A DNA stretch of 13,326 nt from a virus. The first letter of the stretch is position 1. The number at the start of each line of letters is the position of its first letter. The position numbers were made by a program, and so were the translations under genes. Positions 2,840 through 13,269 of this stretch are shown here, piece after piece. The DNA is taken from the UHGV virus genome UHGV-0203667; one strand, written 5' to 3'. The notes beneath the pieces are model-generated. The model had not been told where the DNA came from, made no database searches, and saw nothing but the letters and a program-made list of their open reading frames with translations.

Positions 2840-2868
2840 TTGACAATTGGTTGACAATATGATAAGAT
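2840..2868 (+). promoter_or_regulatory. Sigma70-type promoter P1 (TTGACA-17-TAAGAT)
   Basis: -35 TTGACA at 2840-2845, 17-bp spacer, -10 TAAGAT at 2863-2868. A second TTGACAAT sits 11 bp downstream (2851-2858) and a third at 3031-3038. Confidence 0.65.
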
Positions 2869-2903
2869 TATAAATAGGGGGAGAAACAGATCCGGAGGTC
2901 AAT

Positions 2904-3053
2904 GTGGAAATTACAGATGTAATAGCGATCATCAACCTGGCTGTACTGTGGTGCGGTGTTGCCTACATAGCCGGAGTAACTGCAATCGACAACCTTGAAG
3001 AAAAAATGATAGATAAATACAAAAAGATTGTTGACAATCTCGCAAATAGCTGA
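2904..3053 (+). CDS. Small (49 aa) single-pass membrane protein, not in the supplied ORF track (GTG start)
   Basis: GGAGG (2895-2899) plus 4 nt precedes GTG at 2904. The translation is VEITDVIAIINLAVLWCGVAYIAGVTAIDNLEEKMIDKYKKIVDNLANS, ending at TGA 3051-3053. It has a hydrophobic N-terminal helix and a charged C-terminus. The gene has its own promoter (P1) and a downstream terminator. Confidence 0.55.
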   Translation: MEITDVIAIINLAVLWCGVAYIAGVTAIDNLEEKMIDKYKKIVDNLANS

Positions 3054-3059
3054 TAAAAT
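3031..3059 (+). promoter_or_regulatory. Sigma70-type promoter P2 (TTGACA-17-TAAAAT) embedded in the 3' end of the small ORF
   Basis: -35 at 3031-3036, 17-bp spacer, -10 TAAAAT at 3054-3059. It would start a transcript at about 3066, upstream of the 3109-3141 terminator and the 3183 gene. Confidence 0.5.
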
Positions 3060-3108
3060 ATAAATCATAGGGTAATTCTCATCATAGTGAATTTCCTTAA
3101 ACAAAAAT

Positions 3109-3141
3109 GCGGGGGCTTGTCTTAAGTTCCCGTTTCTTTTT
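3109..3141 (+). terminator. Rho-independent terminator or attenuator immediately upstream of the rep-like operon
   Basis: GCGGGGGCUU gucuu AAGUUCCCGU forms a 10-bp stem that includes three G-U pairs, so it folds only as plus-strand RNA. It is followed by UUCUUUUU. Confidence 0.7.
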
Positions 3142-3182
3142 AACCGTATATCATTCTGATTCGAATTATAGGAGGCCCCGTT

Positions 3183-3398
3183 ATGGCAAGCAACGGACCG
3201 ACTAGCCCCCTGGTTAGCTGGACTACTGATGAGATCGTCGAAAACGTGCTCAGCGGCAAGTTTTATAAAAATTCTGTTTATGCTTTTATCCGTCGTAATA
3301 AAGGAAAATATCCACACATTGAAGCGGCAATTTTAGAACTGAACCGTCTTCGCCTTGAGCGTGAGCTGGCTAAATACACCAACAACATTGATAAATAA
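3183..3398 (+). CDS. Small hypothetical protein (71 aa)
   Basis: AGGAGG sits 7 nt upstream of the ATG. The C-terminal half is basic and helical. The gene is immediately followed by the rep-like gene. Confidence 0.7.
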   Translation: MASNGPTSPLVSWTTDEIVENVLSGKFYKNSVYAFIRRNKGKYPHIEAAILELNRLRLERELAKYTNNIDK

Positions 3399-3411
3399 TT
3401 ATGGGGGAACT

Positions 3412-4308
3412 ATGGCAAGTAATTACGGGGAGGTTTTTAATCCCCATTTCGAACGCCTCATTCAGTACACTTTTGATAAACCAGTAGCAACAACAATTGC
3501 TAATAAAAAGACTGGAAAAACAAAAGAGCGATTTAATTTAGACCTGATAGAGGTAACAATTTATGGAAAAATGGCAGGTTTTCATTTAAACGGGCAAGAA
3601 ATATTTATCTCAGAGCAGACCTTAGCAAAAATATGTGGTGTGAGTGATAGAAAAATCATCGAATCTATCAAAACTCTGGAAAATGCCGGGCTTATTTCTA
3701 AAGAAAGCCGGAAAGGTATGTCTAACATTTACAAACTGTTAATTACTCCTTCTCAAATCTGCAAAATGTGTGATGAACAGAAGATAGAACCAATGAGTAA
3801 TGCAGGTGGTGAAGATAAACAGCCTCAGGAAGCCCCAAAACAAGCCACACAGCAAGCTAAAAAGGCTAAAGTAGTGCAATTGCCTACCCAAGACACTAAA
3901 GCGCCTCAAATTAACGCTGTTAGTGACAAGCCACGCCGGGGCCGTCCTGTGAAAGATGTAACCGATGGGGGCTGGATTGTCCTGGGTGAGAGTGAAGCTA
4001 AAGATAGAATGCGCTCACTGTGGGAAAGCAAATACAAAGGTTTAAATAAACGTTGCCCGATCCGTTTGTCAAAGATTCAGGAGGATTTTTACACCACAGA
4101 GGAGGTAATACGCCATAAAGGCAATAGAGACGGTGAAATCTGGAAACCGGAAGAATACTGGCATTTAACCAGACCTGTTTTTATTTTTGCAAATAAACTT
4201 ATTGGGATGGGATTTGAAATATTGTTAGATCAAACTTACGGAGATTATCCTGAAATATTGTGGAGAAATGTTAGAAAGAATAAAAAAGGCATTTTAGAGT
4301 TTAGATAA
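3412..4308 (+). CDS. Putative replication-initiator/O-like DNA-binding protein: N-terminal winged-HTH, Q/A/K-rich linker with AT-hook (RRGRP), C-terminal domain
   Basis: The start is moved from 3355 to ATG 3412 (GGGGGA SD; removes the overlap with the 3183 gene). The motif ISEQTLAKICGVSDRKIIESIKTLENAGLISKESRKG is typical of wHTH initiator or DnaD-like N-termini. KPRRGRPVKD is encoded around 3931-3948. The iteron field lies upstream. Confidence 0.6.
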   Translation: MASNYGEVFNPHFERLIQYTFDKPVATTIANKKTGKTKERFNLDLIEVTIYGKMAGFHLNGQEIFISEQTLAKICGVSDRKIIESIKTLENAGLISKESRKGMSNIYKLLITPSQICKMCDEQKIEPMSNAGGEDKQPQEAPKQATQQAKKAKVVQLPTQDTKAPQINAVSDKPRRGRPVKDVTDGGWIVLGESEAKDRMRSLWESKYKGLNKRCPIRLSKIQEDFYTTEEVIRHKGNRDGEIWKPEEYWHLTRPVFIFANKLIGMGFEILLDQTYGDYPEILWRNVRKNKKGILEFR

Positions 4309-4349
4309 AAATACTGATAATCTTATTTTTTTGTTTAAGGAAATTTAAA

Positions 4350-4496
4350 ATGTATGGCGATTTTGATTATTACCTGGAAAAGGAAAAATATTTTGAAGAT
4401 GAACTATCACAACATTTTTCATATTGGGAAGAATATTGTGGTTGGTTAGCTGAAGATCCAGCAGATGAAGAAAATGATTCTGACATCCCTTATTAA
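4350..4496 (+). CDS. Small (48 aa) strongly acidic protein, not in the supplied ORF track
   Basis: AAGGAA lies upstream of ATG 4350. The translation is MYGDFDYYLEKEKYFEDELSQHFSYWEEYCGWLAEDPADEENDSDIPY, with a stop at 4494-4496. It fills an otherwise empty gap between genes on the same strand. Confidence 0.5.
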   Translation: MYGDFDYYLEKEKYFEDELSQHFSYWEEYCGWLAEDPADEENDSDIPY

Positions 4497-5116: not shown

Positions 5117-5159
5117 CCCCTTCCGGGGCTTGACGTTGTCAAGGCCGCAGCTATGCGGC
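5117..5159 (+). promoter_or_regulatory. Triple tandem hairpin module, copy 1 (partner at 12577-12621)
   Basis: CCCC ttcc GGGG | CTTGAC gtt GTCAAG | GCCGCA gcta TGCGGC, with no spacers. It ends 20 nt before the 5180 start codon. Stems are conserved in the partner copy through compensatory changes. Confidence 0.6.
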
Positions 5160-5179
5160 TCTAATTTAAGGAATTCCAA

Positions 5180-5623
5180 ATGTCTCAAATCGCTAAATTA
5201 TTATCCCAGGTTATCAAAGCTATCGACGCTGAAGATTCAAAAGTTCGCCAGGATCTTTTAGATGGCAAGTTTACCAACACCCTGGCATTTACCCGTGACA
5301 AAGAGCACTTCTTAAAGCACAGACATCACGCTTTCGCTGAATGCAAGTCCGCTAATGGTGATGTTTTCTATGTCGATTTGGTGGTTATGGCATGTAGATT
5401 GTGGATGATTCAGGACCTTATGCGCCAACACGGTGATGATCCTTTTATCAGCATGTGGAACAGCGCCCAGGATGGCTTTGTGATTGCTGCCTTATCCAAA
5501 TCCATGATTGAGGCAGAAGGCGCAAGCCTTCAGAACATGGCAGATCTCTTTGAAATAAGCGTAGGAATGATGCAGACCATGCTGCAGGCGGTGAAGCCTC
5601 TCAAACTGGTTAATCTTGCTTAA
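5180..5623 (+). CDS. Hypothetical protein (147 aa)
   Basis: AAGGAA lies upstream of the ATG. The composition is coding-like and there is no competing ORF. Confidence 0.75.
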   Translation: MSQIAKLLSQVIKAIDAEDSKVRQDLLDGKFTNTLAFTRDKEHFLKHRHHAFAECKSANGDVFYVDLVVMACRLWMIQDLMRQHGDDPFISMWNSAQDGFVIAALSKSMIEAEGASLQNMADLFEISVGMMQTMLQAVKPLKLVNLA

Positions 5624-6308: not shown

Positions 6309-8411
6309 ATGGCAATGAAGGAAGTCGCCAGACTAACAAACGTTATTTACTGGGACTCTGATAAATCCTCCTGGCGAAAAGAAGTTAAGCGCTTGGAGGA
6401 TTATAAAAAATCCTGGAAGAAAGCTACCGACGATATAGCTAAAGCGGATTTTAAATCTAATCAGGCTGTGCTCAGAACACAAAGAACACGCGCTAAGGTG
6501 GAAGAGCAGATCGCCAGAGCACAGAAGAAACAACGTGCTCAGGCTGTCAGCCGTCTGACCGGGGGCAATAATCCGGAGCTCTCCTCTATGCGCAAGTTCT
6601 ATCAGCAGCAAGCCAGAGAGGCCGCCAGACAACAAAAACTGTTAGATCGTAGTGTTGGAGATGTTCAGCACAGAAAAGCACGTGTAGGGGCCAACAGTGC
6701 ACGAATCAGCAGCATGTTTGATGGCTCCCTGGTTGCTCAGTTCCAATCCAGAATTCAAAGAGTTAATGCTGATTATGCTAAAGGGGCTATTAACCTGCAG
6801 ACCTATAATCAGAAAATGGCCCGACTCAGATCTGAAATGAAGATGGCAACAGCAGAGGCCGGAAAATTTCAGAGCAAACTGGATAGAGTTGCGATCACAG
6901 GATCTAAGCTGCATGACAACCTGGGGAAACTAAATTCTACTTTAGGCAAGATAGCTATTGGCCTTACTGCCGCTGGCTGGGGTGTTCAGCGTGCTGTTAG
7001 TGGTGCTATGGGTAGCCTTGCAGATCGCAACAGTGCCTACTTCGGTTTGATGGCACAGAACAAGGATGATAAAGCCAAGACTGATCAGCAGATGGCCTAC
7101 GTCAAAAGAATCTCTTATGACTACGGGATGGATCAGCGTGAGACCGAAGGCGGTTTTATGCGCTTTGCTGCAGCCACACCGAGCATAGAAGAGAAAGATA
7201 AACAGGCTCTTTTTGAGGCTATGGCTATTAAAGGTCGCTCAGTGGGTGCTACCGCAGACCAACAGAACAGGGCTATCGTTGCACTAGGGCAAATATATAG
7301 CAAGGGCGGTCGGGTGTATGCGGAAGAGCTTAAGGGCCAACTTTCTGAAGCCCTGGCAGGTTCTCAGGTAGATTTCACTAAGGCCGCTATCGATGCCGGA
7401 GTCATCAAGAAAGAGGAAGAATTTAATAAAGCCCTTGAAGATGGCAAGATCACCATGGATAAGCTTCTCCCTTCTTTGGTGAAAATCTGGTCTGCAGCCA
7501 AGAATACGAAAGCCTTTGCTGAATCCATGAAACAGCCAGAAGTAGCAATGCAGCGCATGAAAAACAGCTTTAACGAGCTGGCGATTCAGTTTATGGGTGT
7601 TGTGGATCCTGCCGATGGCGTTGTTAGCTTATCTGAATCTCTGATCTCCATCTTCGAAGACCTCACCACTGATATGGACGGCAGCGGGAGCGCGGCAAAA
7701 CAGTTTGGTGAAGCAGTCGGTGCTGCCATGCGGGAGATCATGTATTGGGTAGGCTTCGCTAAGGGATATATCGAGGTCAAGGCTAAAGAGTTCGGCATGA
7801 CCGGATCAGAGGTTGGCGAGCTTATCGGGAAACTAGTAGTCGGCTTAGCTGGTCTGAAAGTTATTACCACACTGCTTTCCCCTCTAACCGGATTTGTTTC
7901 ACTTGTCACCCAACTGATAGCCTTGTTAGGTAAAATCCCTGGTATGAGCAAGCTTATGGCATCTGCCTCAGGTGGAACGGCAACAGGAGCAGCAGTTATC
8001 AGTGCAGGCTCTAACGCTGAAAGAAGCTTCATTGATGGCAAGACGCAGGAAATGAGTAAGGAGAACTCAAAACAGGGTGCTTTGTTTGAGCTGGGAAGAT
8101 TTGTCAGCAATGCTGGCGCACTGTTCACACCTGGCGGTGATACTGGTCCTTTGTTCGATCAGGTCAAAGGCTGGTTTAATAAAGGGCCAACATTGACAGT
8201 AGACACTGGCATCAGACCAACACCAACGGGTGGCATAGCTATCCAGAATGGTGGATATCAACCAGTCCAAGTAAATGTAGCCCCACAAGGTGAGATTTCC
8301 GGCAAATGGGAGATAACCATCGATGAGGGGGGAATTGCCAGGGTGATCCAGAAGGAAGTCAGCGATCAGTTGGATTGGAAAGCCACACAGGAATCTAACC
8401 AGCTTTTCTAA
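6309..8411 (+). CDS. Phage tail tape measure protein (700 aa)
   Basis: The N-terminus is a long K/R/Q/A-rich coiled coil. The central region GQIYSKGGRVYAEELKGQLSEALAG is typical of the tape-measure core domain. A hydrophobic segment LIGKLVVGLAGLKVITTLLSPLTGFVSLVTQLIALLG follows, then a Gly-rich C-terminus. A GAGG SD lies upstream. Confidence 0.85.
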   Translation: MAMKEVARLTNVIYWDSDKSSWRKEVKRLEDYKKSWKKATDDIAKADFKSNQAVLRTQRTRAKVEEQIARAQKKQRAQAVSRLTGGNNPELSSMRKFYQQQAREAARQQKLLDRSVGDVQHRKARVGANSARISSMFDGSLVAQFQSRIQRVNADYAKGAINLQTYNQKMARLRSEMKMATAEAGKFQSKLDRVAITGSKLHDNLGKLNSTLGKIAIGLTAAGWGVQRAVSGAMGSLADRNSAYFGLMAQNKDDKAKTDQQMAYVKRISYDYGMDQRETEGGFMRFAAATPSIEEKDKQALFEAMAIKGRSVGATADQQNRAIVALGQIYSKGGRVYAEELKGQLSEALAGSQVDFTKAAIDAGVIKKEEEFNKALEDGKITMDKLLPSLVKIWSAAKNTKAFAESMKQPEVAMQRMKNSFNELAIQFMGVVDPADGVVSLSESLISIFEDLTTDMDGSGSAAKQFGEAVGAAMREIMYWVGFAKGYIEVKAKEFGMTGSEVGELIGKLVVGLAGLKVITTLLSPLTGFVSLVTQLIALLGKIPGMSKLMASASGGTATGAAVISAGSNAERSFIDGKTQEMSKENSKQGALFELGRFVSNAGALFTPGGDTGPLFDQVKGWFNKGPTLTVDTGIRPTPTGGIAIQNGGYQPVQVNVAPQGEISGKWEITIDEGGIARVIQKEVSDQLDWKATQESNQLF

Positions 8412-8438: not shown

Positions 8439-8460
8439 CTGACCGGATAAACTCCAGGCA

Positions 8461-8493
8461 AGAAAAAAGCCCCTAAGTGTTAACAAAGGGGCT
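8461..8493 (-). terminator. Rho-independent terminator, strong on the minus strand and weak at best on the plus strand
   Basis: The minus-strand RNA reads AGCCCCU uuguuaacacuu AGGGGCU followed by UUUUUUCU. On the plus strand the stem is followed by CUUCUCC. Confidence 0.75.
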
Positions 8494-8913
8494 CTTCTCC
8501 GGTATCCTTTTGATGCGGGGCAAAACCTGCTAACAAAAATCAACCTCTCGCGAGACTAATGTTAGCAGGTTGCCGGAAGGTAAGTCAACTCCGGCCTATA
8601 AACCTTAAAGCGACTATAAAATTGCCCCGCCAATTGTGATGATCCGACCTTTGAGGCGGGTCCGGTGCCCAGGGGGTGCAGTGATGCACAAACCAGGCAA
8701 CGATAAACAGGCTAACAGTGATAGCGGCGCTCTCTCAGCGCACTAAATCCTAACCAGTCCGGGAAAGAGGCTGGCTCTATCGACCGCTCATGCACGGGAC
8801 AATGCATACCTGATAAAGGATTCTCACAAGGGACCAATCGCGAGAAAAGAAGTGGAAAGGGGCTGATTTGTGGTGTATCACTACGGCCTCAAAAGACACC
8901 CTATTGCCTTTTT
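8494..8913 (-). ncRNA. ORF-free, highly structured roughly 420-nt region between the last minus-strand CDS and its terminator; candidate structured 3' UTR or ncRNA
   Basis: The supplied track has no ORF here. A perfect three-way junction spans 8515-8630: outer stem GCGGGGCAA/TTGCCCCGC (9 bp), inner stem ACCTGCTAACA/TGTTAGCAGGT (11 bp, with a 24-nt loop holding the palindrome TCTCGCGAGA), and inner stem GCCGGA/TCCGGC (6 bp). Further hairpins are GTGCA gtga TGCAC (8676-8689) and GCGCT ctctc AGCGC (8727-8741). The strand is assigned from the terminator orientation only. Confidence 0.4.
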
Positions 8914-9372
8914 TCAGCCTCTCCCCACATTTGACCAGTATTTGATTGCACCGATCAAATCATCATAGTGGCGCATTGCATCATTGAAGCCTTTATAGCT
9001 TGCCCATTGTGGGGAAACCTTGTTGTTGCTGAATTGCCCACTAATCAGGATAGTCTCCAGAATGTCGGCGTATCGCTTGCCAATTCGCTTCCTGACGGCC
9101 TCAGAGCTCCCACCCTTTACGATTGCATTAATCAGGGCTTTTGTGTGTCTCAGGCTCTCATAGAGCATTGCAGCGTGGGCAGATTCCATAAAGGAGCGCT
9201 TAGGCAGATCACCCCACCCCTCAGAATGAATTGCTGCCAATGTGGCGTAATTCAGGCCGCTATAGTGTTTCCCGTCATCCCAGCCAACCGCTACACCTTC
9301 CATCTGTGAGAGCTCTTTATGCAGCTTATCCATCATGCGCTTGTCTATGGTGCAACGGACTTTCGGACTCAT
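8914..9372 (-). CDS. Putative head-tail joining or tail-completion type virion protein (152 aa)
   Basis: ATGA start/stop overlap with the upstream gene. The motif AAIHSEGWGDLPKRSF resembles the HEFG..P.RPF motif of HK97 gp10-like and morphogenesis proteins. This was recognised by eye only. Confidence 0.6.
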   Translation of the reverse strand: MSPKVRCTIDKRMMDKLHKELSQMEGVAVGWDDGKHYSGLNYATLAAIHSEGWGDLPKRSFMESAHAAMLYESLRHTKALINAIVKGGSSEAVRKRIGKRYADILETILISGQFSNNKVSPQWASYKGFNDAMRHYDDLIGAIKYWSNVGRG

Positions 9373-10181
9373 TTGTTGATCTCCGTGATGTCATCAAGCA
9401 ACATGTTGGCCTTATCAATCATCGTTTCGTGGAACTCATTCGACACGACAGACTTATCACCTGCTGCAATCTTTCCCGCTGCCTCTCCCTGTGCATATTC
9501 CCCGCGATGCTTAGCCCTGGTTGATTTCGTAGCAGCATTGCCAGCGTTACTACCCTCTTTAGCACTGTTAACAGCACCCTTTTGCTGTGTTTTATTCACC
9601 TTCTTACTGTTAGTGAAAACTCCGGCATTTTCGACCATCTTCACCTTGAAGGTGCGGAATTCTTCAAAAGTGCAATCAATAGTGATGCAGTCGCCAGAGG
9701 AAGAGCTACGCTTAACTTCACATTTCGTCATGATGAAGTTCTCAAGGAGTCCGACATCTTCACCCACCAGGCTGATAATCTGGCGCTTGTCTCTCATTTC
9801 CATAAGTGCCTGAACAGCGGCAGCAGGGCGCATAGATTCACGGGGATTATCTGGATCAGTGTTCCGGTCGATGTAGTTCTCTTTCCGGATGATATGAGGG
9901 GAAGAGGTAATAATACCCGTAAAGCTGACAGATTTATCTTTAATGACGGCATGGTCTGACATGGTGGTGCCATCCTCGACCGCATAGCTCGATTTCTCAA
10001 CAGGGAACGAATAGCTGACATCAGAGATAGAGTCAAAGAAGATAGCCACATTATCGGTATAGTTGAAGCCATCCATCATATTTTTGTTTTGTGAATATCC
10101 CCCACACATAACAGTGAATGCAGGAGATCTCGACTCAGCTTGTTTTGCAGCTGTCAGAGCATCACTAGCCATATTAAACAT
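9369..10181 (-). CDS. Putative virion structural protein (270 aa) with K/A/G-rich C-terminal region; the N-terminal half is reminiscent of Dit-like/baseplate-type domains (weak call)
   Basis: GGAGG lies upstream. The start may be ATG 10181 or ATG 10172 (MASDALT), which has better SD spacing. It sits inside the structural operon. Confidence 0.6.
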   Translation of the reverse strand: MFNMASDALTAAKQAESRSPAFTVMCGGYSQNKNMMDGFNYTDNVAIFFDSISDVSYSFPVEKSSYAVEDGTTMSDHAVIKDKSVSFTGIITSSPHIIRKENYIDRNTDPDNPRESMRPAAAVQALMEMRDKRQIISLVGEDVGLLENFIMTKCEVKRSSSSGDCITIDCTFEEFRTFKVKMVENAGVFTNSKKVNKTQQKGAVNSAKEGSNAGNAATKSTRAKHRGEYAQGEAAGKIAAGDKSVVSNEFHETMIDKANMLLDDITEINK

Positions 10182-10246: not shown

Positions 10247-10507
10247 TTATTTTGCAAAACGATTATGCGCATTCAGGGCTTTTTTGCGGTCCTGGGCTTG
10301 TTTGCGTGCAATAAAATGTTCGAAAGTCTCGGCCCAGGTGCATTTATTATATTCACGGTATTTGTGCATAGCCTGGCGGCTAACTTGATAGACAGATGCG
10401 AATGTGGAGATACGCAGGAATTCCGGCAGATCCTCGTCATCGATATGGATAATATCAAAAGGCACGTCATCACGGTCGCCGTATAAAACAATTTTCATAA
10501 AAGACAC
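10247..10507 (-). CDS. Small HTH-containing protein (86 aa) inserted between capsid and downstream virion genes
   Basis: GAGGTG lies 6 nt upstream of the ATG. The HTH-like segment is ISTFASVYQVSRQAMHKY, and the N-terminus is acidic. Confidence 0.7.
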   Translation of the reverse strand: MSFMKIVLYGDRDDVPFDIIHIDDEDLPEFLRISTFASVYQVSRQAMHKYREYNKCTWAETFEHFIARKQAQDRKKALNAHNRFAK

Positions 10508-10531
10508 CTCAAAAACTTAAGACGGGGATAA

Positions 10532-10580
10532 CAAAAAAGGGAGGAGGGAAAGACCTACCCACAATCTCCCACCTCTTCCC
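10532..10580 (-). terminator. Probable partial (leaky) intrinsic terminator just after the major capsid gene
   Basis: The minus-strand RNA reads GGGAAGAGGUGGGAG auuguggguaggu CUUUCCCUCCUCCC followed by UUUUUU. The stem is imperfect, with G-U pairs that are valid only on the minus strand. Confidence 0.5.
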
Positions 10581-11978: not shown

Positions 11979-12452
11979 TTGATCACCTGCGATTTAAATT
12001 AACTCCCCTCAAAGGGCTCAGGTATAACCTCTCAAACCACGACAGGCTCGGGCCGAAAAGTTATGCCGGAAATCTAAAGGGGGATTGATATAAGGAGAGG
12101 GAGATAGCCCCGCACCGTCCAAGCGGGGGCTATTCCATATGGGGAAAACCAACAACAGTTGGCTGATAGTTCACTGCATGGTTACGGTTGCTAGAGAGCA
12201 CTATCACGAAAGGCACTCCCCCGAATCAGTTCAGGCTGCGGTCACATCAGCGGGGAAATACCTTTCGGGATAGCTACCCACACCGAAAACCCGCAAAAGA
12301 AAACTGTGTGGATAACTAGCCCAATAGGAGAATTAATCGACCACTCTAAGATGATCAGGGTAGTGTTATTTATAAGGCGGCACCGCTACCTGGTCGCCGT
12401 TACTTTGGAGGAAAATACGGCAAATCACCTTCGCTAAATGATTCACGGTATA
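11979..12452 (-). other. Roughly 470-nt ORF-free structured leader between the LexA-controlled promoter and the head genes
   Basis: There is no ATG ORF with an SD. Structures include a 10-bp bulged stem ATAGCCCCGC/GCGGGGGCTAT (12104-12133), CCAAC aaca GTTGG (12149-12162), CCACAC/GTGTGG (12279-12311) and others. No hairpin followed by a U tract was seen on the minus strand. Confidence 0.5.
12307..12315 (-). promoter_or_regulatory. Perfect DnaA box (TTATCCACA on the minus strand)
   Basis: The plus strand reads TGTGGATAA at 12307-12315. It is a single copy, so chance cannot be excluded. Confidence 0.3.
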
Positions 12453-12470
12453 CTGTATATTATATCAGTA
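12451..12470. promoter_or_regulatory. LexA (SOS) box
   Basis: TACTGTATATTATATCAGTA keeps CTG-N10-CAG intact and matches 15/20 positions of TACTGTATATATATACAGTA. All mismatches are A/T swaps in the spacer. It overlaps the -10 element and the start site of the minus-strand promoter. Confidence 0.8.
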
Positions 12471-12487
12471 TTTACTCACATTGTCAA
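12459..12487 (-). promoter_or_regulatory. Perfect consensus sigma70 promoter (TTGACA-17-TATAAT) directed leftward toward the head operon
   Basis: The minus strand reads TTGACA atgtgagtaaatactga TATAAT. The -35 is at 12482-12487 and the -10 at 12459-12464. The predicted start site is near 12452. Confidence 0.85.
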
Positions 12488-13008: not shown

Positions 13009-13269
13009 ATGACGGGGGCTAAAGATATCAGGAGACTGAGGGAAGAGCTGATAGCTGAAATTAAAGCTAAGGCAAAGCAAATGGAGATAGCCGCGCAAAT
13101 GGATGTAGCGGAACAGATGTACAAGATGGTTGAAGAGGGAACACCACGACAGGTTATCGCTAAAACCTTCGGTGTGGGGATCGCCACCGTGCACAGAAGG
13201 CTGAAAGCCTATGCCGACTACCACAACATTGAGAGAGGGGAGGATGGGAGATTTAAGAAGAATAAATAG
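13009..13269 (+). CDS. Small HTH DNA-binding protein (86 aa), coiled-coil N-terminus
   Basis: GGAG lies upstream of the ATG. The HTH segment is TPRQVIAKTFGVGIATVHRRLKAY. Confidence 0.75.
   Translation: MTGAKDIRRLREELIAEIKAKAKQMEIAAQMDVAEQMYKMVEEGTPRQVIAKTFGVGIATVHRRLKAYADYHNIERGEDGRFKKNK

Follow-up and report, generated by a model that had tools for sequence, protein, structure and literature searches.

A putative same-strand antisense RNA at the head of the replication operon in a family of 13-kb Escherichia coli plasmids

The virus genome UHGV-0203667, whose full stretch of 13,326 bp we call the window, is a complete circular element belonging to a plasmid family of Escherichia coli: its helix-turn-helix (HTH) gene at 13009-13269 is followed by 57 nt and then by the ATG at position 1, as in its relatives. 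An initial annotation had described, at 2840-3141 of this element, a cassette made up of a promoter (P1), a 49-codon open reading frame (ORF49), a second promoter (P2) inside the end of that frame and a terminator. Here, we propose that the cassette is a two-output regulatory locus heading the replication operon, and that the RNA started at P2 controls the downstream gene orf48 as an antisense RNA encoded on the same strand as its target. On balance we consider this proposal probable. The features of the cassette are conserved in a set of over 20 relatives, circular E. coli plasmids of 13-14 kb, and those that bear directly on the proposed pairing are:

3031..3059, plus strand: promoter P2, with the -35 hexamer TTGACA (3031-3036), a 17-nt spacer and the -10 hexamer TAAAAT (3054-3059)
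3066..3141, plus strand: P2 RNA of ~76 nt, a candidate small RNA (sRNA), which is also the 5' leader of readthrough rep-operon transcripts and the 3' untranslated region (UTR) of the ORF49 mRNA
3068..3099, plus strand: stem-loop SL1, whose 3' arm holds the anti-Shine-Dalgarno (anti-SD) core UUUCCUU
3090..3107, plus strand: antisense segment AAUUUCCUUAAACAAAAA, made up of the SL1 3' arm and the single-stranded A-rich linker (the seed)
3109..3141, plus strand: intrinsic terminator, with a hairpin at 3109-3133 (11-bp stem with three G.U pairs, 3-nt loop)
4328..4345, plus strand: target site UUUUUGUUUAAGGAAAUU, which covers the SD AAGGAA (4337-4342) and ends 4 nt before the ATG at 4350
4350..4496, plus strand: orf48, the first gene after rep, encoding a very acidic protein of 48 amino acids (aa) that ends in DSDIPY

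The proposal starts from the complementarity between the leader and the orf48 ribosome-binding site (RBS). When the window was searched for sites that pair with the non-terminator part of the P2 RNA, the segment 3090-3107 was found to be perfectly complementary, over 18 nt, to 4328-4345, and the helix reaches 20 bp including G.U pairs. Apart from self-antisense, this duplex is the best in the whole window (-32.2 kcal/mol versus -27.2 kcal/mol for the next best site). We then looked at the same two segments in the plasmid family, represented by the loci L001-L009, L012 and L014-L032 together with the window; for conservation, 23 distinct versions of the cassette region were aligned. The antisense segment is the most variable part of the RNA, with changes in 15 of 19 columns, and the relatives carry at least six versions of the leader. 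The complementarity is kept in five sequence classes, by changes in both partners. In class D the match is again perfect over 18 nt (AAUUUCCUUUAAUGAACU with AGUUCAUUAAAGGAAAUU), in class B the pairing is formed by CCUUUAGUAGACUG with CAGUAUUCUAAAGG, and in class E a perfect 15-nt match lies upstream of a different small acidic gene. The seeds of classes A and D read AAACAAAAA and UAAUGAACU, respectively. Shuffling the leaders while preserving their composition gave a run as long as the observed one in 0 of 20,000 cases for class A, 0 of 20,000 for class D and 5 of 20,000 for class B.

The two partners also change together. In an alignment of the duplex from classes A, B, D and E, 92.9% of the cells are paired and compensatory double changes are seen in 10 of the 21 pairs, while none of 500 shuffles equalled the observed number of paired cells, the number of compensatory pairs or the covariation score. 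Sliding the partner by 1-3 columns lowers the pairing to 39-64%. In an all-against-all matrix of duplex energies between classes, the cognate RNA and target are always the most stable pair, and the class of the leader equals the class of the target in 22 of the 22 loci that have a target. This coupling is kept over a segment that is itself reshuffled: the identity of Rep to that of the window lies between 41 and 100% in class A and between 41 and 91% in class B, so that, for example, L002 is of class B at both ends with a Rep 91% identical to that of the window, and L021 is of class A at both ends with a Rep only 41% identical. Thus, with the classes coupled and the Rep types shuffled, both ends switch together, independently of the intervening sequence.

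Such a pattern could in principle arise at the level of DNA, if the complementary segments were inverted repeats around an exchangeable rep module, serving as recombination boundaries or as paired protein sites. The arms do bracket exactly the mosaic segment 3100-4300, and the gene at 13009-13269 encodes an 86-aa protein whose HTH is of the resolvase type. We find this explanation hardly credible, however. Read on the plus strand, every wobble pair of the duplex is G.U or U.G, a pattern that speaks for pairing of plus-strand RNA and against an inverted repeat at the DNA level, as the same positions are A.C mismatches on the other strand or in DNA. Moreover, the right arm always sits at the SD or the start codon, even where the gene behind it is a different one (classes C and E), the left arm always sits in the open linker directly before the terminator, the Rep types recombine independently of the arms, and no recombinase catalytic domain was found.

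The predicted structure of the P2 RNA is in agreement with a role in pairing. Its minimum free energy (MFE) is -22.2 kcal/mol, with z = -4.15 relative to dinucleotide shuffles, and it folds into two hairpins, SL1 and the terminator hairpin, separated by the single-stranded A-rich linker at 3100-3108. In L014 and L021 the sequence of the SL1 stem differs (CACUA.../...UAGUG) and the hairpin still forms. The terminator hairpin is followed by TTTCTTTTT, the tail reads UUUCUUUUU, and the signal is specific for the plus strand. Its position is kept among the relatives, where three different hairpin sequences are found at this place: L012 and L014 carry compensatory variants, and class C has an unrelated hairpin with a T-run. 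Both the plus-strand terminator and the short RNA that it delimits together with P2 had been predicted in the initial annotation, and both are supported here at the level of sequence. The annotation had further left the choice between an sRNA and an attenuated leader for the rep-like genes; this can now be made concrete, as the predicted short RNA is antisense to the region where translation of orf48 is initiated, and the pairing is backed by covariation. A scan of the whole window with cmscan against 4227 Rfam families, with E-values up to 1, returned no match in the cassette; its sole match in the window is a weak and unrelated one, to ctRNA_p42d, at 8458-8498.

Class C gives an instance of the same layout with unrelated sequence. 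In plasmids of the L008 type an unrelated 99-nt leader replaces the whole leader from the P2 -10 hexamer onward, and the resulting RNA again consists of 5' hairpins, an open A-rich linker, a terminator and a U-tail (z = -4.9). A 62-aa acidic gene occupies the position of orf48, and in its start-codon region 18 of 21 positions are paired with the open linker of this RNA. The counterpart of orf48 in this class (L019, 3790-3978) ends in DSCIPY, and the class E counterpart has the acidic tail DDDYDEDY.

As far as the start of the RNA is concerned, P2 matches the sigma-70 consensus at 11 of 12 positions and has an extended -10 element, TGaTAAAAT at 3051-3059 (TG at 3051-3052), with the predicted start at ~3066. 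The promoter lies within the final 8 codons of ORF49 together with its stop (codons 43-50), and the TGA stop falls inside the extended -10. Matches of at least 11/12 are rare, 2 being observed in comparison to 0.29 expected (P ~0.015). Among the relatives none of the 6 columns of the -35 hexamer varies and only one of the 6 of the -10 hexamer does (giving a perfect TATAAT in L012), in contrast to 8 of the 17 spacer columns; because the hexamers are nearly invariant and the spacer is free to vary, we read P2 as a promoter. The other promoter, P1, is a 10/12 match with an extended -10, TGaTAAGAT at 2860-2868 (TG at 2860-2861), and a predicted start at ~2875; both of its hexamers are invariant in all plasmid relatives. 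The two promoters are thus found as the initial annotation had described them, TTGACA-17-TAAGAT and TTGACA-17-TAAAAT. The decisive support for them, judged from sequence, is the conservation across relatives and not the match to the consensus. Upstream of the P2 -35 hexamer lies a nearly invariant A-rich block (2977..3030, plus strand, overlapping codons 25-42 of ORF49), in which 10 of 54 columns vary, compared to 25 of 73 in the N-terminal half of ORF49; it is a candidate UP element or regulator site.

Both -35 hexamers belong to the octamer TTGACAAT, which occurs on the plus strand exactly three times, at 2840, 2851 and 3031. The three copies had been pointed out in the initial annotation and they are indeed present, but they are not a conserved motif, as the copies vary among relatives: that at 2840 reads TTGACATT in some of them, others have TTGTCAAT or TTGACAGT in place of that at 2851, and the 2851 copy lacks a -10 at a spacing of 16-18 nt. 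As invariance is confined to the TTGACA hexamers of P1 and P2, and the copy at 2851 changes freely, the octamer was rejected as a functional element or operator. A 10-mer, TAATTCTCAT, present at 2831 and 3073, was also dismissed (27 of 200 shuffles reach it, and it shows no covariation). On the minus strand the octamer is found once more, at 12480-12487, as the -35 of a 12/12 consensus promoter. This perfect sigma-70 promoter (minus strand, 12487-12459, TTGACAAT...TGATATAAT, with a TG extension) is directed toward the capsid and tail genes; between it and the first structural gene (11978) lies a highly conserved leader of ~480 nt (11979-12458), a candidate regulatory leader or RNA.

The genes that follow the cassette on the way to orf48 are two:

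3183..3398, plus strand: orf71, the first gene of the rep operon, with no promoter of its own detected and with homologues only in the plasmid family
3412..4308, plus strand: the replication initiator Rep, lambda-O-like, matching HTH_36 (Pfam) and phrog_270/678 (PHROGs)

The match of the second gene, which contains an array of 12-nt tandem repeats (3826-3857), to families of replication initiators agrees with the earlier statement that the cassette directly precedes a rep-like operon. Likewise, no promoter had been seen between the terminator and 3183, and our scan found no promoter-like site between 3141 and 3183; the transcription of rep therefore probably needs readthrough of the terminator.

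Taken together, these observations can be arranged into the following mechanism. From P1, an mRNA of ~265 nt would be made for ORF49, which is predicted to be a single-pass inner-membrane protein. P2 would yield an abundant RNA of ~76 nt that ends at the intrinsic terminator. The terminator would stop most of the transcription from both promoters, and the rep operon (orf71, rep, orf48 and onward) would presumably be expressed by readthrough only. The A-rich linker of the short RNA would seed on the U-rich 5' part of the orf48 initiation region, and the pairing would extend into the anti-SD core of SL1, up to 18-20 bp in total. The paired RNA would occlude the ribosome-binding site of orf48, with repression of its translation as the likely result. 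Pairing may take place in trans, with the RNA as a free sRNA, and possibly also in cis within the readthrough transcripts. The final output of this circuit, and its least certain step, would most likely be a negative feedback on replication in the form of copy-number control and incompatibility; we are led to it because the acidic tail is in some plasmids fused to Rep and the RNA dose scales with the copy number. The five covarying classes of seed and target would then act as specificity types.

One may ask whether a free RNA is needed at all. If the element acted only in cis, the leader would be an attenuator or insulator, and the helix between the leader and the orf48 RBS, formed within the readthrough mRNA, would set the ratio of Rep to orf48 or the stability of the message. 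The partners are on the same strand, 1.25-1.75 kb apart, in one predicted operon, and in class F plasmids, which have promoter, leader and terminator but no target, the attenuator can stand alone. However, we regard an exclusively cis-acting element as unlikely. With a near-consensus promoter and a good terminator ~45 nt further on, the short RNA should far exceed the readthrough product; the structured 5' domain, open seed, terminator and U-tail make up the layout of a trans-acting sRNA, which recurs in the non-homologous class C; and a candidate promoter at 4293-4321 (9/12) would produce leaderless transcripts of orf48. The latter site, at the end of rep, is a weak promoter-like sequence, TTTAGA-17-GATAAT, whose predicted start at ~4328 falls exactly on the 5' boundary of the target; should this promoter be real, such leaderless transcripts exist and would need the RNA in trans.

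A lead on the role of orf48 is given by its C-terminus. Homologues of orf48 were not found outside the plasmid family. In plasmids of the L006 type a separate orf48 is absent and the C-terminus of Rep itself reads ...NDSAIPY; because of this fusion the acidic tail appears functionally tied to Rep. The C-terminal tip of E. coli SSB recruits many replication proteins. The tail DSDIPY is, as we take it, similar to this tip (DDDIPF), and orf48 may be a recruiter or a mimic for host proteins that bind the SSB tail.

The same pairing could alternatively be an immunity or quiescence switch that silences the orf48 operon (orf48, three genes of ~150 aa, an HTH gene and the tape-measure gene) as long as the element is a plasmid, similarly to P4 CI or P1 c4. 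The block of translation in the first cistron would cause polarity on the genes downstream, and infection by a helper phage would relieve it. Several facts speak for such a switch: orf48 opens a block of co-oriented genes that extends into the tape-measure gene, the diverged homologues of capsid, tape-measure and baseplate proteins of Vequintavirus, not accompanied by terminase or portal, suggest a satellite that needs to be switched on, and P4 and P1 provide precedents. Nevertheless, the acidic tail within the L006-type Rep ties the target to replication, and the RNA has no complementarity to the full genome of Escherichia phage nom, a representative Vequintavirus (as a trigger or sponge), beyond 11-13-mers at chance level. 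We therefore hold this switch to be a doubtful alternative, if not a far-fetched one.

Several points weigh against the control of orf48, and of replication through it, by the P2 RNA. The promoters, transcription starts and termination are predictions, and P1 by itself is at chance level (3 sites of at least 10/12 observed versus 3.8 expected). The alignment used for covariation was anchored by hand on the proposed duplex and so leans toward the structure, and the relatives are closely related, so that independent covariation events are few, about five classes; neither the run-length statistics nor the class C case relies on the anchored alignment. Repression, and not activation, is deduced only from the occlusion of the SD. 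The part of orf48 in replication is argued from one fusion and from the presumed likeness to the SSB tail, and the output could be morphogenesis instead of replication, because orf48 heads an operon that runs into the tape-measure gene. Finally, class F (L006, L024-L029), which has the commonest rep type, keeps P2, leader and terminator, yet the only match found there for a target is one of 9 nt at rep codons 4-6 (-12.3 kcal/mol), no better than background. The pairing with orf48 can thus not be the only function of the element, and a role as attenuator or leader must be able to stand alone.

A possible secondary target of the RNA is the SD region of a 147-aa gene (TTTAAGGAATTCCAAATG, window 5140-5180), which has a 9-nt complement to the core UUCCUUAAA of the class A and F RNAs; an equivalent is present in L006 and L024-L029, and the match is at chance level when taken alone.

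The other output of the cassette is ORF49, with the following features:

2840..2868, plus strand: promoter P1, with -35 TTGACA (2840-2845), a 17-nt spacer and -10 TAAGAT (2863-2868)
2851..2858, plus strand: second copy of TTGACAAT, within the P1 spacer, probably no separate functional element
2894..2898, plus strand: Shine-Dalgarno (SD) sequence GGAGG of ORF49, 5 nt before the GTG at 2904
2904..3053, plus strand: ORF49, 49 codons, with a GTG start

These parts, including the hydrophobic helix and the charged tail of the product, are as the initial annotation had given them. The SD context CCGGAGGTCAA is kept in the relatives, apart from a single C-to-T change in the L008 group. Conservation of the frame, the lack of which was to count as a refutation in the initial annotation, is strong: among 16 distinct DNA variants there are always 49 codons and not a single indel, with GTG or ATG as the start. 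The minimum numbers of changes by codon position are 12/10/29 and the pooled pN/pS is 0.24. ORF49 had been noted as missing from the supplied track; it is annotated in RefSeq relatives (e.g., WP_157794903.1). By these measures ORF49 is a real gene under purifying selection. Its product has an acidic N-terminus, a predicted transmembrane helix at about residues 6-28 (Kyte-Doolittle maximum over 19 residues, 2.18) and a lysine-rich, amphipathic charged tail, and is predicted to be a single-pass protein with the N-terminus out and the C-terminus in. We found no homologues outside the plasmid family in a word-indexed search of 5.8 billion clustered proteins, and a search of 1.84 billion representatives with a hidden Markov model (HMM) returned only the family and spurious repeats. 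Comparison to Pfam, PHROGs, NCBIfam, PADLOC and the PDB sequences likewise gave no match.

The size and shape of this peptide (49 aa, one transmembrane helix, charged tail) fit those of type I toxins such as Hok, Fst, TisB and Ldr, and the initial annotation had likened it to type I toxins, holin-like peptides or superinfection-exclusion peptides. In a type I toxin-antitoxin system for post-segregational killing, ORF49 would be the membrane toxin and the small RNA the antitoxin. The small RNA gene adjoins ORF49, and no partition or toxin-antitoxin genes are recognisable on this small plasmid. The test that defines such a system nevertheless failed, because no RNA was found that pairs with the ORF49 mRNA: the P2 RNA comes from the same strand, and its best targets in the duplex scan exclude the ORF49 initiation region. 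For an antisense RNA over ORF49, which the initial annotation had proposed to look for at 2890-2910, no credible promoter or terminator was found, since the promoter-like sites on the minus strand over the frame are at the 9/12 background level and a minus-strand terminator is missing, and this candidate was rejected. There is no homology to toxin families in Pfam, NCBIfam, PADLOC or PHROGs, and P1 looks constitutive and the SD strong and exposed, which is unusual for a toxin. A type I system is therefore very unlikely in our view. A hok-like fold-back of the 5' and 3' ends of the P1 mRNA was also considered and discarded: it is present in the MFE structure, but the whole transcript has a z-score of -1.0 and its 5' segment lacks conservation.

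The holin-like reading is not supported either, because no lysis genes are adjacent: the neighbours of the cassette are a region free of coding sequences (CDS) and the rep operon, and no lysis genes adjoining it were among the hits. The sole match in the window to a PHROG labelled as endolysin (phrog_1517, E 7e-11) is a secondary one, on the Dit-like tail gene at 9369-10181.

The control of orf48 proposed here can be compared to several described systems. The closest in arrangement is c4 of P1 and P7, in the immI operon (c4, icd, ant), the mechanistic details of which are reportedly given by Citron and Schuster 1990. As with c4, RNA and target share a strand, the RNA lying upstream within one operon and with no minus-strand genes in between, it pairs with the ribosome-binding region of the first small gene downstream, and its sequence variants set the specificity (as in P1 versus P7 heteroimmunity). 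Unlike c4, which is processed from a longer transcript, the P2 RNA has its own promoter, in the upstream CDS, and its own intrinsic terminator, and its target is an acidic protein associated with Rep and not an antirepressor operon; the P1 transcript may nevertheless also be processed. The c4 RNA of P1 controls ant (PMC8201110). Covariance models of same-operon antisense RNAs (P1/P7 c4, P4 CI, N15 CA; Rfam C4) gave no match in our data.

The CI RNA of P4, which acts on the targets seqA and seqC, is similar in that a small same-strand leader RNA restrains the replication operon of a phage-dependent mobile element, in that a constitutive promoter is followed by early termination, and in that a second promoter upstream and a small ORF overlap the region; the details for kil and eta are reportedly those of Forti et al. 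1999. CI differs in being processed and in provoking premature termination within the leader, whereas here the termination is intrinsic and the target is a distant RBS 1.2 kb downstream. The Rfam scan showed no homology of sequence or structure between the CI RNA, summarised in PMC4825925, and the P2 RNA. In the case of IsrK from Salmonella Gifsy-1, one promoter gives a short RNA with Rho-independent termination and a polycistronic readthrough mRNA, and the short form acts on the first cistron of the long form (PMC4825925). The pair of short and readthrough isoforms is shared with our case. However, IsrK opens a structure and activates translation, while the pairing considered here covers the SD itself, and repression is thus expected; the sequences are unrelated.

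The countertranscripts that control plasmid copy number (R1 CopA, ColE2 RNAI, pMV158 RNAII, pT181/pIP501 attenuation RNAs) are constitutive, their dose follows the copy number, they block the synthesis of the replication protein at or near its RBS, and their variants are incompatibility types. In contrast to these RNAs, which are made from the opposite strand and are fully complementary to the rep leader, the P2 RNA lies on the same strand as rep, has only 12-20 complementary nt and is directed to an accessory gene after rep; minus-strand promoter-like sites at 3000-3100 reach only the background of 9/12 and no terminator accompanies them. RNAs of the DapZ/MicL type are 3'-UTR sRNAs with an internal promoter. 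The P2 RNA would resemble them in having its promoter in the 3' end of the upstream CDS and in sharing the intrinsic terminator of the mRNA, as predicted, but DapZ and MicL are chromosomal, depend on Hfq and have unlinked targets, while the target here is in the same operon, on a plasmid. The A-rich linker and the U-tail of the P2 RNA are compatible with Hfq binding and are not evidence for it. MicL is cited as reference 48 in PMC4825925. With respect to the type I toxins, ORF49 shares size, single transmembrane helix and charged tail, and differs in that a cognate antisense RNA was not found and that there is no sequence homology.

If the proposal is true, a regulatory RNA that has no Rfam family would join the same-strand, operon-internal antisense RNAs (P1 c4, P4 CI, IsrK), set apart from them by a promoter inside a protein-coding gene and by a terminator of its own. 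It would also be a case of antisense control of plasmid replication or accessory genes by an RNA that is not a countertranscript, with natural specificity classes. In addition, the analysis flags two uncharacterised small proteins, the 49-aa membrane protein and the 48-aa acidic protein with an end like the SSB tail, and gives a handle on an unstudied family of ~13-kb plasmids of E. coli and Shigella that are maybe satellites of virulent phages.

The relatives of the window are E. coli plasmids of 13.2-13.7 kb with 83-89% identity across the cassette. The family was found in 7 of 5,426 complete E. coli genomes, and protein look-ups extend it to hundreds of E. coli and Shigella contigs of 13-14 kb; in PLSDB it is classed as non-mobilizable. 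Four more members came from a scan of metagenomes, while pattern and protein searches of IMG/VR and of the GTDB representatives yielded no more distant relatives of the module, and a search of the accessible literature found no paper that describes the plasmid family or satellites of Vequintavirus. One locus of the family, L009 (NZ_CP043822.1, 39.6 kb), is a head-to-tail trimer of the 13-kb element in which one copy is degraded, with its capsid and baseplate genes fragmented; it may be a multimer or an assembly artefact. Apart from the lambda-O-like replication initiator, the window encodes several small ORFans, a tape-measure protein (6309-8411) and, on the minus strand, a tail-completion protein, a Dit-like protein and a major head protein. 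Terminase, portal, integrase and lysis genes are not among its gene assignments, and it has no genes for transfer RNA (tRNA) or transfer-messenger RNA (tmRNA).

The structural genes link the family to rV5-like phages (Vequintavirinae). Relatives of the capsid protein in the phage collection are almost only phages of this group, at ~25% identity; the longest matches of the tape-measure protein, also ~25% identical, fall there as well, its matches as a whole spanning many genera. At the nucleotide level, short patches are shared with the tape-measure and baseplate genes of the phage nom. Moreover, two contigs found independently, L010 (38 kb, Logan ERR13318355) and L011, are 98.5% identical over 10 kb to Vequintavirus phages such as nom. 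L010 switches into the plasmid module (window 2977-3977) inside an ORF, at a microhomology of 7 nt, so that 2977 is the left edge of the module common to both, and the junction yields a hybrid protein of 82 aa (P0008). The module in L010 (10150-11600) contains P2, the class A RNA, the terminator, orf69, a 121-aa gene and the N-terminal part of Rep, and it replaces the 3' end of nom_18 and roughly nom_19-nom_25 (the stretch of nom, our locus L033, to be compared is 10277-10552); homologues of phage tail-fibre genes follow farther on. A target of the RNA was not found in the examined part of the contig. Homology of ORF49 to nom_18 at the junction was considered and dropped, as BLASTP returned nothing and only the 7-nt microhomology is shared. 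At the level of sequence, these data are evidence that the plasmid family has exchanged DNA with rV5-like phages.

In view of these links the family may represent a satellite of virulent Vequintaviruses, or else a reduced relative of them. A more far-reaching version, in which it is an undescribed Vequintavirus satellite, the P2 RNA is its quiescence or immunity determinant, the five classes are under diversifying selection and L010 has captured the RNA, seems to us quite unlikely as a whole. The RNA captured in L010 could be a counter-measure by which a phage keeps the satellite silent; equally, it could be the footprint of recombination between helper and satellite.

Upstream of the cassette, the window has ~2.3 kb (540-2900) in which ORFs do not exceed 104 aa, none of the relatives has an annotated CDS and Rfam gives no match. 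Its part 600-1800 is 92-99% identical across the family and 1800-2300 is mosaic. Iteron-like arrays are located at 561-611 (11-nt unit TATTTATCCCC) and 2213-2322 (23-nt unit ACCCCTGAGAATTTCTCACTACT), and three terminator-like hairpins of the minus strand at 2356-2378, 2440-2468 and 2669-2687. This stretch could contain an origin, partition or packaging sites, or an undescribed RNA. The phage nom also has a CDS-free stretch, of 2.5 kb (103133-105617), whose similarity to that of the window is limited to one 24-nt patch. The heptamer CCCACAC is present in 11 copies compared to 1.04 expected (0 of 200 shuffles), at 1058-2526 of the window and elsewhere; seven of the copies lie inside the CDS-free stretch, and the heptamer is a candidate protein-binding motif.

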